The position numbers and the translations under genes were made by a program. This document shows positions 40,532-47,340 of a stretch of DNA of 64,000 bases, piece by piece. Origin of the DNA: an uncultured Flavobacteriales bacterium (GTDB taxonomy: Bacteria; Bacteroidota; Bacteroidia; Flavobacteriales_G; Salibacteraceae); assembly GCA_913062955.1 (NCBI GenBank), contig CAJXZP010000003.1:45883-109882 (forward strand). Direction: 5' to 3'. The first letter of the stretch is position 1. Every line of letters begins with the position of its first letter. Below the pieces are notes generated by a model. The model was not told where the DNA came from. It was given only the letters and a program-made list of their open reading frames with translations, and made no database searches.

Positions 40532-41674
40532 TTAATCAAATTCGTAATAGTCAGAAGGTAAGGTTTCATTTCGTAGGTCATCCAATTGCTTGTTTTGGGA
40601 AATAAACTTTGGCCAATGTTTACTTTGATCCTTGGCATTCATGTATCGTATAATCTCATCTATTTGAGAAATAAGCTTAATAGATGAAATTTCTTGTTGA
40701 AAAATAGAAAGCTTTTTTGAAACTCGTTCCTTTAACCGTAAGGGTATAATTTGAATATTGTAATGGATAGGACGTTCTAAAAGATTAATATAAATATCCT
40801 CTTCTGAAATGAGATCCTCGTGTAAACAGGTTTGAATTAATTCGGGTAACAGTTCTACATTCAATACGGATATAGTAGGTGCAATTTCAAGTTGGAGATG
40901 GCTTAATTTTTTGGCTTGCTTAAAATTTGAAACAATGGATTCCCAATTTGAGTTGGTCCGTATATAAGATGCCGTTTCTCCCTGGGCATCCAAACTGGCC
41001 ATGATTTGAATATTTTCGAATTTTCTCCATAAATCAAGAATTGACTCTCCTTTGTATTTTAAGAGGGTGAAATTTGTGTTATACCGAAGCTTGATTTTTG
41101 TTACCTCATTTTTAATGAGCCATTTCAACAATCGGTAATGCTCCTCCATTACCAAGGGCTCACCTCCCGCAAAATAGAACTCTTGGGCGTGTAATAAATA
41201 AGGGCCCGATTTTGAAATAAAACGATCAAAATCGGTGATGTTTTTAATGATTGCTTTCTGTCCTTTATTCGTCCGTAGTTTTTTTGCGTCCTCAAACCAA
41301 GAAGAGCTTGCTCCGTGCCAGCAACTGCGACATTTTAAATTACACACATTAGAAAACCGAATATCAAAATAGATCGGAGTTGGAGTTTCAAAATTAAGGG
41401 GTGTATCCTTGAATTTCTTATGGGTTTCTTGACGTATACTGGTCGCTCCTGATTCTTCCAACTTATAACAGTTGGCACATCTTTTATCGATTTTACCTGC
41501 TTTAAATGTGGACCGAAGTGATTGAATGGCTTTCGAATCCCATATTTCCTTTACTTCTTGTTTATTGATGTTTCCGAATGGAATATTGGCTACACAACAG
41601 GCTTTTGCAATTCCATCATCTCCTATATGAAGGTGGATCCATGGCATTAAACAATATGGTTTTTCATCACTCAT
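40532..41674 (-). CDS. Radical SAM protein with N-terminal twitch/SPASM-like Fe-S domain
   Basis: Start moved to MSDEKP. CLMPW...CC...CANC N-terminal cysteines; CNLKCRSC SAM cluster motif; AGGEPL; YNTN. Confidence 0.88.
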   Translation of the reverse strand: MSDEKPYCLMPWIHLHIGDDGIAKACCVANIPFGNINKQEVKEIWDSKAIQSLRSTFKAGKIDKRCANCYKLEESGATSIRQETHKKFKDTPLNFETPTPIYFDIRFSNVCNLKCRSCWHGASSSWFEDAKKLRTNKGQKAIIKNITDFDRFISKSGPYLLHAQEFYFAGGEPLVMEEHYRLLKWLIKNEVTKIKLRYNTNFTLLKYKGESILDLWRKFENIQIMASLDAQGETASYIRTNSNWESIVSNFKQAKKLSHLQLEIAPTISVLNVELLPELIQTCLHEDLISEEDIYINLLERPIHYNIQIIPLRLKERVSKKLSIFQQEISSIKLISQIDEIIRYMNAKDQSKHWPKFISQNKQLDDLRNETLPSDYYEFD

Positions 41675-41783
41675 GACTGCAAATAAAACATAATAATACG
41701 ATAGATGTTTTTGATAACTAGAATTATCAATAGTCTTAGATAAATAGGGCAATAGTTTTACATTTGAATTTAAAATTACACAC

Positions 41784-42557
41784 ATGATTACGCTAATTTC
41801 ACCAGCAAAAACACTTGATTTAGATTCCAAAATCCCTATGGTTGAGGCCTCTTCCTATGCATTTAATTCGGAGTCGGTACGGATAATGAAAAAGTTAAAA
41901 TCGTTATCTAGAAAAAAAATTGCGGAATTAATGAATTTGAGTGAGAAATTGGCGAATTTGAATTACCAACGATTTCATATGTGGTCAGAAAATCCGGATG
42001 ATGAAAACCTTCGTCAAGCAATTTTTATGTTTAAAGGGGAAGTTTACCTTGGGTTAGATGCCCCTAATTTGAAAACGGAAGAATTACAATTCGCACAAAA
42101 TCACCTTCGTATTTTATCTGGACTATATGGGTATCTAAAACCCTTGGATGAAATTCAGCCCTATCGGTTGGAGATGGGTACCGGAATTGCCGTGGGAAGG
42201 AATAAGAACTTGTATCAATTTTGGGGGCGTAAAATTGCACAATTGATCAATTTAGAATTAAAGAATCAGGAAGAGCAAACTATTGTTAATTTGGCATCAA
42301 ACGAATATTTTAAGGCCGTAAACCCAAAAGAAATAAAAGGGGGAATTATTACCCCCATTTTTAAAGATTATAAAAATGGAAACTACAAAGTGATTTCATT
42401 TTTTGCTAAAAACGCAAGAGGTGTCATGGCAAAGTGGATAATTCAAAACAAAATTGAGAAAGCTTCAGACCTGATCCATTTTAACGAAAACGGATATCGT
42501 TTTAATGAGTTGATGAGTACTTCCAATGATTTCGTTTTTACGAGAGAACAAACCTAA
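41784..42557 (+). CDS. yaaA: Peroxide stress protein YaaA (UPF0246)
   Basis: ISPAKTLD, ILSGLYG.L.PLD.IQPYRLEMG, NLASNEYFKAV, ISFFAK.ARG. Confidence 0.93.
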   Translation: MITLISPAKTLDLDSKIPMVEASSYAFNSESVRIMKKLKSLSRKKIAELMNLSEKLANLNYQRFHMWSENPDDENLRQAIFMFKGEVYLGLDAPNLKTEELQFAQNHLRILSGLYGYLKPLDEIQPYRLEMGTGIAVGRNKNLYQFWGRKIAQLINLELKNQEEQTIVNLASNEYFKAVNPKEIKGGIITPIFKDYKNGNYKVISFFAKNARGVMAKWIIQNKIEKASDLIHFNENGYRFNELMSTSNDFVFTREQT

Positions 42558-42598
42558 AAAAAAAGGCCGTCCTTCTCGAATGAATGGACAGCCTTTTT
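42557..42598. terminator. Bidirectional intrinsic terminator between yaaA and microprotein B
   Basis: AAAGGCCGTCC / GGACAGCCTTT stem with an A-run before and a T-run after. Confidence 0.75.
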
Positions 42599-42618
42599 AC
42601 CTAAAACTAACCCTAAAA

Positions 42619-42771
42619 CTAAACAGTTTGAATATCGTACGATATAATGGAAGCATCCGGGTAAACGGCTTTCCAGATTTTATAATCTGTTAGGGACCTA
42701 AGATGAAGAATAATAGGGCCCTTTACCCGAACCTTTATTATTTCTTGAAGTCTTGAATCTGTTGTTTCCAT
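42619..42771 (-). CDS. Unannotated 50-aa microprotein B (METTDSRLQEIIKVRVKGPIILHLRSLTDYKIWKAVYPDASIISYDIQTV)
   Basis: Hand-translated. ATG preceded by a long A-run; 14/33 ungapped identity to the adjacent microprotein A; followed by a terminator. Confidence 0.75.
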   Translation of the reverse strand: METTDSRLQEIIKVRVKGPIILHLRSLTDYKIWKAVYPDASIISYDIQTV

Positions 42772-42784
42772 TTTTTTTTTTTGT

Positions 42785-42814
42785 AAAAAACTGCCCTGCT
42801 TTACCAGGGCAGTT
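42785..42814 (-). terminator. Hairpin with U-tract between microproteins A and B
   Basis: Perfect 10-bp stem AACTGCCCTG / CAGGGCAGTT followed on the minus strand by a T-run. Confidence 0.72.
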
Positions 42815-42849
42815 CACCTAAAACATAACGGAGTTTCTTAACCCTGCTA

Positions 42850-42996
42850 TTATGAAATTATTACTGCGTTTGGATATAAGTTTTTCCAATAATCAAACCG
42901 AGTCATATCCTTTAATGTGATGATTGTTTTATGATCTAATCTGATTTTGATTTTTCTGACAATTTTATCTGTTAAGTTTTTTCCTGAGTCTAACAT
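42850..42996 (-). CDS. Unannotated 48-aa microprotein A (MLDSGKNLTDKIVRKIKIRLDHKTIITLKDMTRFDYWKNLYPNAVIIS)
   Basis: Hand-translated. A-rich leader, TAA TAG double stop, downstream hairpin, homology to microprotein B. Confidence 0.78.
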   Translation of the reverse strand: MLDSGKNLTDKIVRKIKIRLDHKTIITLKDMTRFDYWKNLYPNAVIIS

Positions 42997-43266
42997 AAGT
43001 TTCGTTTTTTTTTGAATGGTTTTAAAGTTGTTTGATTGAGTTTACGATGTTGAACCAATAAATGTTCTGTAACATTCTAGTTTTTAACGGTTGTTAACAG
43101 GGAGGTGTTTTTTCATTTAAGCCTAAGTAACGTACGTCACTGATAATGTGCGTGTTGATGGATAGTGGTTCGTGTGGAGATAATGATAAATAAATCGGAT
43201 AATTGGCAGATTTTATTTGGGACACCTTGGTTTAGAGAATACCTTGTCGGCATAATTTTACATGCT

Positions 43267-46200
43267 ATGAAAAAAGGATTCATCATCATTCCGGGCTTTC
43301 TGTTGTTCTGCCTCTTAATTTTGTTTCAATTTGGGTTTTCCCAATCAATGAATACACTCCAGTTAAAAAGTGGTAATTATCAACTTACTCCCAATATGGA
43401 GAAAATTGAACTGACACATTTATGGAGTAGTAAATTTCAAGAATCCTATTTTGTTTTAGTTCATTTTAAAGTGATCCCAACAACTCAACAGAAAAATAGT
43501 TTGTCTGACTTAGGGGTTTCTTTAAGAGATTATTTGCCCGAAAATTCCTTTTTAGCAGAATTGGAAGCGAATACGAATTTGGATCGTTTAGTGGAATTTG
43601 GAATAGATGGAATTTATTGGGTAAGGCCAGAGTTTAAGATGAGTTATCAAATTCTTCAAGAAGATTACCCAGAACATGCTCTAAATGGAGATAGATTAAA
43701 AATGGTAGTTCAAAATCATCCAATAGAAGATTTGAATATGAAATCTGTTTTTGCAGAATTTCAGGCCGTTTTAATAAAATCGTATTCCTACTCTCAATTA
43801 AACACCATTGAAATTCCAATTCATGAAATACAAAATTTGGCAAAACTTCCATTTATTAAATACATGGAAATAATTGCACCTGATCCGGTACCCGAAGACT
43901 TGGTAGGAGAAACGAATCATAGAATGAATTACATTTCGAATTCAACGACTAATGCAATCCCTTTTAATGGAACAGGGGTTTGGTTGGCTGTGGGAGATGA
44001 CGGTGCTATGGGACCACATATCGATTATAAGGGAAGAATGGATTTATCAAGTGTTGGTGCAAGTACGGGTACCCACGGTGATCACGTTGCTGGAATTATG
44101 ATGGGGGCTGGAAACATTGACCCAGATGCTAGAGGTATGGCTTGGGGGGCTGATATTAAAGTTTATGATGTGTGGGATGCTGTAAATAGTACACCCATCA
44201 GTTATTTTAACCCAGGAGTTATAGTTACTTCCACCTCCTACGGCAATGGGTGCAATGCGGGCTATACTAGTTTTGCACAATCGGCAGACCAACAAGTTCG
44301 ACAAATGCCCAACTTAATGCATGTGTTTTCCGCTGGAAATTCAGGAACGTCCAATTGTGGTTATGGGGCCGGTTCGGGTTGGGGGAATATCACCGGAGGA
44401 ATCAAATCGGGTAAAAATGTTTTAGCCGTTGGAAATGTTACCGCCAATAATCAGCTATCAAGCTCTAGTTCTAGAGGTCCTGCGAGTGATGGTCGAATAA
44501 AGCCCGATATCTGCGCCAATGGAACACAGGTAAATTCTTGTTTCCCAGACAATCAGTATACGAGCAGTTCGGGTACTTCAATGGCGGCTCCAGGGGTTTC
44601 TGGTACATACGGAGCCTTAGTACAAGCCTATAGGGTCTTAAATGGTGGAGCTACCCCGAGTTCTGATTTGGTGAAAGGTGCGATGTTAAATACAGCGGAT
44701 GATTTAGGTAACCCGGGGCCTGATTTTAAATTTGGTTGGGGACGCCTAAATGCAAGAAAGGTGTTAAACGTTTTTGAAAACAATACGTTTATGTTGGACT
44801 CTATTGGACAAGGAGGGTCTAACCTACATTCTATTCTTGTTCCTTCCGGTGTGGATCAAGTGAAAATAATGGTGTACTGGAATGATTATGAAGGCGCAAT
44901 TCAATCCTCTAAGGCGCTGGTGAATAACTTAGACATGACCGTAACTAGCCCAGTGGGTTCGATCTCATTTCCCTTTGTTTTAGACCCAACTCCTATTGCG
45001 TCAAATCTAAATACGCCCGCAACCAATGGGGTAGATACCCTAAATAATATGGAACAAATAGTGTTAAATGCTCCAATTGCAGGTAACTATATTATTGATA
45101 TTTCAGGTACAAGTGTTCCACAAGGAATTCAAAAGTATTATGTGATTTATGAGTTTATTACTTCCGATATTATAGTAACCTATCCTACAGGTGGAGAGGG
45201 TTTTGTTCCGGGAACCAGTGAGATTATCCGTTGGGATGCCTCCGAAGGAGTCCAGAATTTCCAAATTGAGTATACCTTAGACAGTGGTTTAAATTGGATC
45301 AATATGGCCAATGTAAACGGGACATCCAGACAAGTAACTTTTAGTGTTCCCAATGTAGTTACTGGAAATGCGAAAATTAGAATAATTCGGAGTGGAATAA
45401 GTGGAGAATCAAAAATGTATTTTTCAATCATTGGGGTTCCCACCGATATTGAGGTCATTTCTTTATGCCCAAATAGCTTTGATCTAAAATGGAGTTCTGT
45501 GCCTGGGGCAACAGCGTACGAAGTGAGCGTTTTAGGAAGTAAGTATATGGATTCAGTGATCACAGTTATGGATACTTTTGCAACGGTTATTGGTTTCTCT
45601 GCGGGTATAGAACATTGGGTGAGTGTGAAGGCAAAAACAAATGATGCGATCGGAAAAAGAGCCTATGCGATTCAAAAACAAGCCGGGGTATGGAATTGCA
45701 TTTTAAATGAAGATATTGGATTGGAATTGATTTCCCCTTCATCTGGGGTGGTGCCAAGTTGCGTTTCTGGAAAACCAAGATTTGTGACGGTTAAGTTGAA
45801 AAATAACGGGCTTTCTTCCGTGACAAATGTCGGTATGAATATGCAAATTAACAATGGCGCCATAAACAATGAAATTTATTACGGTATTATTTTACCAGGC
45901 GATTCCGTGTATTTTTCTTTTGCCGATGATATTACCTTACCCGTAACAGAACAAAGAGTGGATTATTCAATTTGGAAGGATGGGATGGATGATAACCCTT
46001 TGAATGATTCCATTATTGATCATTTCTCTATTCGAACTTCTACGAGCATTTCCTTAGGGTATTCAACAGACTTTCAAGATCAAATCACCTGTAGCACGGC
46101 AAGTAATTGTGGGCTTGGAATATGCAATTTAACGGACTGGATTAACGCAGAGAATGGCGTGGATGATGCGATTGACTTTAGAACTAATCGTGGGGGGACT

Positions 46201-47340
46201 GTTTCCGGGAGTACTGGGCCAGATGCTGGACACACCACCGGATCTTCTACCGATAAATATGTGTATTTAGAAGCATCGGGTTCCTGCGAATTTATGCGTG
46301 CAGATCTTTTGTCTCCTTGTTTCAATTTGGAAAATACAATTCAACCAGAGGCAAGTATTTGGTACCATATGTATGGGAGCGAAATGGGAGATTTACATTT
46401 TGATGTTTTGGTAAATGCAATGTGGGAATTAGATGTGATTCCTAGTATTTCAGGGAATCAAGGTACTAGTTGGAAAAAGGCCATCATTGATTTATCGGAT
46501 TATGTAGGACAAAACAATATTGTGATTAGATTCAGAGCTATCACGGGCTCTGGATATCGAAGTGATATTTCTTTAGACGATTTTGAAATAAAGGAAACGA
46601 TGTCTGGGATTTTTTCGGACACTACATTTTGCCAAGGGATGGCCGGCAACATTTCATCCATTGGATTTAGTAGTGGGGCAAGCTACTCTTGGAACTTTGG
46701 AGCCAATTCAAATCCATCCAGTTCTGTGACTTCAGGCCCCCATTTAGTTACCTACAATACACATGGGACGAAACAAATCACGGTAGATGTAATCGATAAC
46801 GGGATTACCCAGAGTTTTACGAATACCATCCTGGTCCTGGAATCAGCTACAGTGAGCTTTGATACGCAGCATGTTGCTGATGATCAAATACAATTTATCA
46901 ATACCACTGTAGGGGCCATTCGCTCGTTTTGGGAATTTGGAGATGGCGGAAGCTCTCGTCAATTTAATGATGCTCATACTTACGCTATTTCGGGTATTTA
47001 TACCGTCAGTTTAACCTCTGAAAATGCATGTGGAAGTTCAATGGCGATCAAAGATATGTATGTGGGTATAGTTGGAGTAGAGGATGATTTAAAGGGGGGC
47101 AATGAGATTTCGGTTTATCCAAATCCTTCCAGTGGAAAGATCCAGGTACACGTATTAGTAAATTCAGAAGTTATTGGATTAGATATTTTTGATATGAAAG
47201 GAGTTCAAGTATTTGCAACAAATGAAAGTCCAATTAACAATATATGGAACCTGGACTTAACCTATTTGTCGGTAGGTGTTTATATGGTACGGGTGCGTAC
47301 CCTATTTGAGACCATAAACCATAAGATAGTGATTGAATAA
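43267..47340 (+). CDS. S8 (subtilisin-like) serine peptidase with MAM, PKD and T9SS C-terminal sorting domains
   Basis: Start moved to MKKGF. Triad motifs AVGDDG, THGDHVAG, SGTSMAAP; MAM-like YVYLEASG...WYHMYG; PKD SFWEFGDG; CTD VYPNPSSG. Confidence 0.92.
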   Translation: MKKGFIIIPGFLLFCLLILFQFGFSQSMNTLQLKSGNYQLTPNMEKIELTHLWSSKFQESYFVLVHFKVIPTTQQKNSLSDLGVSLRDYLPENSFLAELEANTNLDRLVEFGIDGIYWVRPEFKMSYQILQEDYPEHALNGDRLKMVVQNHPIEDLNMKSVFAEFQAVLIKSYSYSQLNTIEIPIHEIQNLAKLPFIKYMEIIAPDPVPEDLVGETNHRMNYISNSTTNAIPFNGTGVWLAVGDDGAMGPHIDYKGRMDLSSVGASTGTHGDHVAGIMMGAGNIDPDARGMAWGADIKVYDVWDAVNSTPISYFNPGVIVTSTSYGNGCNAGYTSFAQSADQQVRQMPNLMHVFSAGNSGTSNCGYGAGSGWGNITGGIKSGKNVLAVGNVTANNQLSSSSSRGPASDGRIKPDICANGTQVNSCFPDNQYTSSSGTSMAAPGVSGTYGALVQAYRVLNGGATPSSDLVKGAMLNTADDLGNPGPDFKFGWGRLNARKVLNVFENNTFMLDSIGQGGSNLHSILVPSGVDQVKIMVYWNDYEGAIQSSKALVNNLDMTVTSPVGSISFPFVLDPTPIASNLNTPATNGVDTLNNMEQIVLNAPIAGNYIIDISGTSVPQGIQKYYVIYEFITSDIIVTYPTGGEGFVPGTSEIIRWDASEGVQNFQIEYTLDSGLNWINMANVNGTSRQVTFSVPNVVTGNAKIRIIRSGISGESKMYFSIIGVPTDIEVISLCPNSFDLKWSSVPGATAYEVSVLGSKYMDSVITVMDTFATVIGFSAGIEHWVSVKAKTNDAIGKRAYAIQKQAGVWNCILNEDIGLELISPSSGVVPSCVSGKPRFVTVKLKNNGLSSVTNVGMNMQINNGAINNEIYYGIILPGDSVYFSFADDITLPVTEQRVDYSIWKDGMDDNPLNDSIIDHFSIRTSTSISLGYSTDFQDQITCSTASNCGLGICNLTDWINAENGVDDAIDFRTNRGGTVSGSTGPDAGHTTGSSTDKYVYLEASGSCEFMRADLLSPCFNLENTIQPEASIWYHMYGSEMGDLHFDVLVNAMWELDVIPSISGNQGTSWKKAIIDLSDYVGQNNIVIRFRAITGSGYRSDISLDDFEIKETMSGIFSDTTFCQGMAGNISSIGFSSGASYSWNFGANSNPSSSVTSGPHLVTYNTHGTKQITVDVIDNGITQSFTNTILVLESATVSFDTQHVADDQIQFINTTVGAIRSFWEFGDGGSSRQFNDAHTYAISGIYTVSLTSENACGSSMAIKDMYVGIVGVEDDLKGGNEISVYPNPSSGKIQVHVLVNSEVIGLDIFDMKGVQVFATNESPINNIWNLDLTYLSVGVYMVRVRTLFETINHKIVIE

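Follow-up and report, generated by a model that had tools for sequence, protein, structure and literature searches.

Bacterial proteins of fewer than 50 residues are under-annotated, and few of them come with a functional lead. Among the small modules that have been described, those of the AbrB/MazE type and the truncated beta-grasp domains are arranged as beta-beta-alpha-beta(-beta) and bind DNA or protein, commonly as dimers. DNA photolyase repairs UV lesions. Light-induced clusters for carotenoid synthesis and photolyase, with small accessory genes coupled to that of the photolyase, stand under the control of ECF sigma factors, with CarQ and RpoE-ChrR as the paradigms (cf. PMC5241685).

According to PMC10055390 and its references 31 and 32, YaaA (DUF328) binds DNA, belongs to the OxyR regulon, and limits peroxide damage. 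In Caulobacter, the same source describes it as required for survival after exposure to H2O2, mitomycin C, and UV.

The window, which is the whole stretch of 64,000 nucleotides analyzed here, carries two genes for small proteins, A and B, next to yaaA. The small proteins have no sequence or fold relationship to YaaA, which is about 257 aa long and nearly universal in the GTDB family of the window, whereas the small protein is present in a part of this family only. The damage-survival theme of YaaA matches the photolyase linkage that the small-protein family shows elsewhere. In a GC-rich lineage, a family member sits inside a cluster of the CarQ/RpoE-ChrR type. These regulons are under ECF control and the putative promoter in the lineage of the window looks ECF-like, but no described member of them resembles the small protein.

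Homologs of A (65-77% identity) are found in Bacteroidota among entries called "hypothetical protein" (KFE94_14905, "bacterium SCSIO 12643," CP073750, as well as MAGs of Salibacteraceae and Cryomorphaceae). Like A, the KFE94_14905-type entries are 48 aa long and lie in the order S8 peptidase, small protein, and yaaA; none of them has been given a name, a family model, a structure, or a function. The first-pass annotation had called both genes hidden, which is right for its own ORF track, but not for public annotation, where the A-type is listed.

The tandem gene pair A and B

The two ORFs of 48 and 50 aa that had been proposed on the minus strand were found at their coordinates. Together with the neighboring genes, the following features are needed here:

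42850..42996, minus strand: gene A, 48 aa, net charge +5 (ORF listing)
42619..42771, minus strand: gene B, 50 aa, net charge about +1, divergent tandem paralog of A
41784..42557, plus strand: yaaA (NF002542 at 343 bits; PF03883), stop codon at 42555-42557
40532-41830: radical SAM gene with SPASM/twitch domain (NF033640, 354 bits; PF13186)

The A protein consists of a variable N-terminal tail (residues 1-15) and a conserved 33-aa core, IKIRLDHKTIITLKDMTRFDYWKNLYPNAVIIS. The C-terminus of B is extended by YDIQTV. Both proteins had been described as basic, which applies to A and to most of the family but not to B.

The cores of A and B align over 33 residues without gaps; 14 positions are identical and 22 score as positives (BLASTP E 5e-9). 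The core identity given in the first-pass annotation was thereby reproduced, and it lies above chance genome-wide. When the entire 3.9-Mb assembly is searched in six frames with A as the sole query, B is recovered at E 1e-3. Furthermore, an HMM was built from A-type homologs alone (alignment A4, B-type rows excluded) and run against the six-frame ORFs of 25 aa or more in the 3.9-Mb genome (79,036). It detected A at 1.2e-21 and B at 1.1e-6, while the third-ranked match reached only E 0.8. On the basis of this result, the genome contains exactly two copies and their paralogy is statistically sound. The further idea of a family expanded by duplication was an overstatement, since there are exactly two copies here and B is limited to part of one genus.

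At the nucleotide level, 43 of 99 positions are identical between the two cores and synonymous sites are saturated, in agreement with the observation that their codons differ synonymously. In six genomes of the same genus, the A core shows a pN of 0.013-0.11 vs. a pS of 0.38-0.70. In the A tail, pN comes close to pS (0.22-0.66 vs. 0.44-0.89), and selection is relaxed in these genomes. For B, four orthologs gave pN 0.21-0.28 vs. a saturated pS of 0.70-0.97, which puts omega at about 0.15 or below; B is under constraint, yet evolving 3-10 times faster than A. These values indicate purifying selection on the cores of A and B. BLASTP, profile search, and pN/pS all agree with the proposed selection of the paralogs at the protein level, and A and B are almost certainly real, translated genes, as judged from their sequences.

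It was also considered that the two reading frames are due to chance or do not code for protein, the conservation being that of an RNA or DNA element. Their very short length and the conserved non-coding blocks on either side speak for this. Against it, silent positions have nearly reached saturation, whereas hardly any residue of the core has changed, the reading frame and the length are held at 35-45% identity in about 130 clusters, and the Rfam hits are sub-threshold and cover the terminator only. The non-coding explanation, whose chance of being right is the slimmest of all those weighed here, is effectively refuted by how few substitutions change an amino acid relative to the silent ones.

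Family extent and predicted fold

A has 35 homologs with 65-92% identity, nearly all of them exactly 48 aa long. Their first 15 residues vary, whereas the C-terminal 33 are near-invariant. When 1.84 billion representative proteins were searched with a profile, 129 clusters (50% identity) were returned at E <=1e-3, with members of 41-142 aa, mostly 41-110. Frame and length are kept both in the 35 close homologs and, down to 35-45% identity, across the roughly 130 distant clusters. In these clusters the domain is mostly C-terminal and preceded by a basic tail of the M[AP]RKKK type. The family signature is IKVRLDxxTxITLx8WKxxYPxAxII, in which the W never varies and L20, T24, and P42 are almost invariant.

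B is much more restricted than A. Orthologs were found in the genomes G004, G006, and G007 and in a few metagenomic clusters, and in the cluster sets the B-type accounts for a single cluster at 90% identity and for a few at 50% identity. Within the genus of the window, B is present in four genomes only (G000, G004, G006, and G007), and two others (G001 and G002) have A and lack B. In a tree of the 33 core residues, the B-type sequences form a separate long branch, whose attachment point, and with it the origin of B, is not placed by the tree.

The small-protein family was detected in 23 of the 58 genomes and 9 of the 16 genera of the window's GTDB family. It was found in none of ten genomes of the order's other two families and in only 2 of a phylum-wide sample of 400 other genomes. 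With this distribution the family is patchy and accessory. Two genomes of the window's genus without a small-protein match also have no yaaA, which suggests assembly gaps. In G057 the small-protein copy is broken by a TAG. A search beside yaaA for diverged hidden copies in the genera without the small protein found only this interrupted copy.

A and B had been assigned to no named family, and this agrees with the searches. Pfam-A, NCBIfam, and PHROGs gave no family match when A, B, and 140 members were scanned singly. The stray profile hits among the 140 members were isolated and spurious, with E 0.002 or weaker. In an hmmsearch of the family profile against PDB sequences, the best match was the BvgS periplasmic domain at E 0.0097, which was judged spurious, and a literature search returned nothing on this small-protein family. 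A and B thus belong to an unnamed, uncharacterized small-protein family which is specific to Bacteroidota.

An origin as a regulator of phages or mobile elements was considered and rejected. The DNA pattern of the family has zero matches in 2.9 million viral contigs, PHROGs gave no match, and the neighbors are chromosomal housekeeping or stress genes.

Models of A and B were made with AlphaFold2 using family alignments. In the model of A (mean pLDDT 79, core about 88), residues 1-15 are disordered and are followed by strands at 16-19 and 25-28, a helix at 31-40, and a strand at 45-46. The model of B (pLDDT 79) has strands at 8-17 and 20-24, a helix at 27-36, and a strand at 41-49; the pLDDT of its core lies together with that of A in the range 85-88. 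The strands of B are longer than those of A, and the YDIQTV extension lengthens the last one. The beta-beta-alpha-beta topology guessed in the first-pass annotation was obtained independently for A and B, and the fold is probably as predicted, with good confidence in the models.

Foldseek against PDB found no significant neighbor (best E 1.8 for A and 1.4 for B), and the predicted fold is without a recognizable solved neighbor in this comparison. The likeness to the RNase H1 hybrid-binding domain or to L9-N that had been proposed is unsupported, since no significant match was obtained and neither of the two is among the Foldseek PDB rows. We take the predicted fold to resemble AbrB/MazE-type swapped-hairpin domains and truncated beta-grasp domains. 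These are like A and B in size and in the order of secondary structures, but A and B have one strand fewer and no Pfam hit, and the beta-grasp-like Foldseek rows for A are insignificant, e.g., a PB1 domain at E above 4.

Putative regulatory DNA around A and B

The following elements were located upstream and downstream of the two genes:

43043..43099, minus strand: conserved upstream element of A with blocks invariant in six same-genus genomes
43099-43082, minus strand: block TGTTAACAACCGTTAAAA, holding the inverted repeat TTAAC-N4-GTTAA
43067-43064, minus strand: GAAC, followed by a 17-nt spacer
43046-43043, minus strand: CGTA, about 47 nt from the ATG of A
42816..42829, minus strand: 3'-UTR block GTTATGTTTTAGGT, directly 5' of the terminator of A
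42785..42813, minus strand: predicted intrinsic terminator of A with a 9-bp stem, ACUGCCCUG/CAGGGCAGU, and U6
42599..42621, minus strand: doubled 3'-UTR block TAGTTTTAGGGTTAGTTTTAGGT after B, opening with the stop codon of B
42556..42598, both strands: predicted bidirectional terminator common to B (minus) and the convergent yaaA (plus)

Upstream of A, the six same-genus genomes share the invariant blocks TGTTAACAaCCGTTAAAA and (G)AAC-N17-CGTA amid scrambled flanks, the latter about 45-70 nt 5' of the ATG. Most of the other genera in the family, as well as a Cryomorphaceae-like group, also have the arrangement TTAACA ... (G/A)AAC-N16/17-CGT[CTA]. In a marine group, TTAACA and AAC are kept and TGTTC replaces CGT. 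Promoters of ECF sigma factors have the form GGAAC/GAAAC-N16-17-CGT. A motif of the ECF -35/-10 type is found upstream of A and is conserved among the orthologs; the upstream element resembles such a pair and may act as a promoter. The housekeeping motif TAnnTTTG of Bacteroidota was not seen upstream of A. The ECF-like motif was found upstream of none of the 22 sigma-70-family genes in this genome, and genome-wide regex scans for this motif and for the TTAAC-N4-GTTAA palindrome stayed at noise level, without a coherent gene set.

Initiation regions rich in A had been noted before, and A-rich tracts indeed precede the ATG of both genes. The same applies to the downstream hairpins, as a strong hairpin with a U-run follows A as well as B. 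The terminator of A has a dG of -26.9 kcal/mol (z -4.5), and the position of its hairpin is kept in the orthologs with compensating sequence changes. The terminator between B and yaaA, which is bordered by an A-run and, at its opposite end, by a U-run, folds with a dG of -22.0 kcal/mol (z -4.3). A scan with a consensus terminator model missed the hairpins of both A and B. The Rfam hits over the terminator were to sRNAs, and no other Rfam hits were obtained.

The GTTATGTTTTAGGT block is conserved in the six same-genus genomes and in one genome of another genus (G041), and it is not a general feature of the terminators in this genome. A genome-wide search for GTTTTAGG gave 254 occurrences vs. 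about 160 expected and yielded no usable regulon. The doubled block after B is conserved in four of four B-bearing genomes. Its motif has two matches in the genome, counting both strands, and one of these is at B.

From these elements, A is a single-gene unit with its own predicted terminator and a conserved putative promoter region. The stretch from the terminator of A to the ATG of B comprises 14 A-rich nucleotides, so that B has no room for a promoter of its own. B is probably expressed by read-through.

Gene neighborhoods and candidate roles

The small-protein gene adjoins yaaA in 20 of 20 loci of the window's GTDB family, in two arrangements. In the convergent one (genera g1, g11, and g5), an S8 peptidase gene and the small-protein gene are followed by yaaA on the opposite strand. 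In the divergent one (g2, g7, g8, g12, and g16), about 95 nt separate the small-protein gene from yaaA; without g2, the divergent genera form a supported clade in the 33-residue tree. The divergent pair recurs on the unrelated contig P0166. In a Cryomorphaceae MAG, yaaA lies 3.7 kb away, with a DEAD-box helicase gene and msrB in between. Seven of the 16 genera in the family have yaaA without the small protein, and this persistence shows that neither gene needs the other.

The radical SAM gene about 1 kb from the pair, in a layout kept within the genus, raises the question of whether A and B are RiPP precursors modified by this N-terminal-twitch enzyme. The invariant W-K-x-x-Y-P would presumably recall, superficially, the motifs of aromatic cross-links. 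Several observations make this very improbable. The opposite-strand yaaA separates the radical SAM gene from A and B, neither of which contains cysteine, and the enzyme gene is there regardless of B (G001 has only A). In addition, a variable N-terminus before a C-terminal domain that is confidently folded in the prediction is the reverse of a leader/core layout. A radical SAM neighbor occurs in genus g1 only, with none within 6-8 kb at the other loci examined. As this gene is genus-specific and its position is taken by a membrane protein in other genera, the RiPP reading was rejected.

A second linkage was found with a degenerate DNA pattern of the family, which identified 80 metagenomic loci. 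A GC-rich lineage with the signature MPRKK..LILTQP..IKVRLDARTVITL.. is represented by 10 loci, in which the small protein starts 2-3 nt past the stop codon of a DNA photolyase gene (PF00875 + PF03441). In 6 of these 10 loci a second paralogous copy follows after a further 19-26 nt. The 5' part of the cluster comprises an ECF sigma factor, a crtI-like desaturase, phytoene synthase (crtB), an idi-type NUDIX protein, and GTP cyclohydrolase I (folE). Its 3' part consists of phr, one or two copies of the small protein, a 164-aa protein without a Pfam match, an O-methyltransferase, and a cobalamin adenosyltransferase. At several further loci, only the 3' end of a photolyase gene is kept upstream of the small-protein gene. 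The window's own genome has no photolyase, crtI, or crtB.

The linkages to yaaA and to photolyase are the strongest ones and are independent of each other, and each of them indicates a connection with UV or oxidative DNA damage. The best overall explanation is that A and B are stress-linked small accessory proteins in the response to such damage, a function read from gene neighborhood and held with evenly balanced confidence. For the link to DNA-damage or photo-oxidative stress as such, our confidence falls slightly short of even. According to this proposal, each protein would fold alone into the predicted beta-beta-alpha-beta mini-domain of ~33 residues, preceded in A and most relatives by a disordered tail rich in Lys and Arg. 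The small protein would bind DNA or a partner in protection or repair, such as YaaA here or, in other lineages, photolyase. Contact with DNA would be made via the basic tail and the sheet. B, which has lost the basic tail, might modulate A through a mixed A-B oligomer.

Nucleic-acid binding had been suggested in the first-pass annotation, and we infer it here from the basic tail, with indirect support from the linkage to YaaA and photolyase. Neither the PDB profile search nor Foldseek found an analog that binds DNA, and direct DNA binding is doubtful. The fullest form of the proposal is unlikely to hold in all its parts, namely that the family is a previously unrecognized component of UV/oxidative DNA-damage defense with a new fold of ~33 residues, working with photolyase and YaaA, in which the paralog pairs are mixed oligomers that tune activity.

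The proteins may instead be pure protein-binding adaptors or regulators without nucleic-acid contact, either stabilizing or modulating photolyase or YaaA or acting as sigma/anti-sigma modulators; the basic tail would then be a docking or degradation signal. A spacing as short as 2-3 nt behind photolyase is what is typically seen for partners that are produced in matching quantities. Tandem pairs are found in two separate lineages (A and B here, and behind photolyase), and their retention suggests mixed oligomers. B is conserved despite having no basic tail, and Foldseek returned no match to a nucleic-acid-binding fold. Yet most members carry a strongly basic MARKKK-type tail, which is typical of nucleic-acid binders, and the partner would have to differ by lineage (YaaA, photolyase, or none nearby). 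We consider the adaptor explanation rather improbable, although it carries the most weight among the alternatives to the stress-linked accessory role, followed by a ribosome- or RNA-associated factor, the unlikely RiPP precursor, and the effectively excluded non-coding element.

In any case, the family lends itself to testing, with its strong purifying selection, a confident predicted fold, conserved upstream DNA, and recurrent linkage to YaaA and photolyase. Should the link to DNA damage be true, Bacteroidota would have in the small protein a new factor for photoreactivation or for protecting DNA from oxidation, and it would offer a handle on the mechanism of YaaA. If it is false, this is an ordinary DUF-type family of conserved hypothetical small proteins.

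Across lineages, the neighborhood of the small-protein gene is not universal. In the P0233 and P0198 types, which represent a widespread lineage, it lies just upstream of the tRNA-tuf-secE-nusG-rplKAJL-rpoB cluster. Among the neighborhoods, this placement is the only support for a ribosome role, in which the protein would be a ribosome- or RNA-associated factor of translation or RNA stress and the DNA-damage neighbors a coincidental synteny. Tiny size and a basic tail would fit such a factor, and the conserved 3'-UTR motif hints at control at the RNA level. The patchy presence in 9 of 16 family genera and 2 of 400 other genomes of the phylum excludes a core ribosomal role. Foldseek gave no ribosomal-protein match and a single translation-factor row, RF3, at the insignificant E of 9.4, and the linkage to yaaA and photolyase recurs in independent arrangements. 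Altogether, a ribosome- or RNA-associated role is quite unlikely.

Finally, other neighborhoods were recorded. In G419, clpB lies directly 5' of the small-protein gene, and in the marine group the gene is located between those for an MFS transporter and aat. Additional contexts consist of envelope and general-stress genes: an AI-2E transporter, ferritin, and Mla genes in one, YceI, BrkB, and LEA_2 in a second, and DUF748, PqiA, and YtxH in a third.

Family members linked to photolyase genes

In six metagenome contigs (L097, L124, L139, L144, L148 and L158), a photolyase gene is followed in an operon by two tandem paralogous members of the small-protein family, each of 53 aa. The first copy starts 2 nt behind the photolyase stop codon, and 19–26 nt separate the two copies. 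This tandem pair is distinct from the pair A and B of the window. At four further loci the conserved 3′-terminal part of the photolyase reading frame (..AACTATGTG..GTCGTTCA..) is kept upstream of the small-protein gene. Two of these, L122 and L154, leave gaps of 254 and 123 nt, respectively, which are too short for a whole photolyase gene, and this suggests that a deletion removed the photolyase and spared the small gene. The deletion reading applies to these two loci only, as the contigs of the other two, L102 and L137, begin too near the small-protein gene for a loss to be judged.

In the window's own genome (assembly 95.8% complete), a whole-genome tblastn search with photolyase, CrtI and CrtB queries gave no match at E < 1e-5. 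The organism seems to have neither photoreactivation nor carotenoid synthesis, yet it has retained the small-protein family.

Sequence elements around the small-protein genes

Three features flank or lie between A and B:
43165 to 47340, plus strand: gene with a product of about 1,390 aa, the identity of which is taken from orthologues
43082 to 43099, minus strand: element TGTTAACAACCGTTAAAA with the inverted repeat TTAAC-N4-GTTAA, invariant in six genomes of the same genus
42816 to 42829 and 42599 to 42621, minus strand: 3′-UTR block GTTATGTTTTAGG(T), conserved in two genera

Judged by its orthologues, the large protein is predicted to be secreted and to be an S8 peptidase that carries MAM and PKD domains as well as a C-terminal T9SS sorting domain. 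Its gene is divergent from A, a synteny which is kept in the window's genus g1 and in the genera g11 and g5, and TGTTAACAACCGTTAAAA lies in the intergenic region common to both genes. Other genera and one marine metagenomic group also have a TTAACA box 5′ of their small-protein gene, so the element may be an operator for a regulator.

The block GTTATGTTTTAGG(T) is located directly 5′ of the terminator behind each small ORF, with two copies behind B, and could serve as a site for RNA binding or processing. It also occurs downstream of the small-protein gene at locus L046 and was not found at the loci where this gene is divergent from yaaA. Folding of 42556 to 42813 gave two strong and clear terminators, each a hairpin with a U-run. 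Both were missed by a consensus terminator scan, the negatives of which should not be trusted.

Variation next to yaaA

The yaaA gene has a further neighbour:
40532 to 41830, minus strand: gene of a radical SAM protein (NF033640, 354 bits) whose N-terminal part carries a SPASM/twitch domain (PF13186)

The PF13186 match covers residues 60–122, N-terminal to the CxxxCxxC core. This gene and yaaA are divergently oriented, and the two are neighbours only inside the window's genus. Because the longest ORF of the radical SAM gene runs over the yaaA start, its translation probably begins at a later methionine.

In another genome, G057, the yaaA-adjacent family member (C10, 25584–25721; L028/L089) is broken by an in-frame TAG just 5′ of the invariant tryptophan codon, which points either to a pseudogene or to an error in the assembly.
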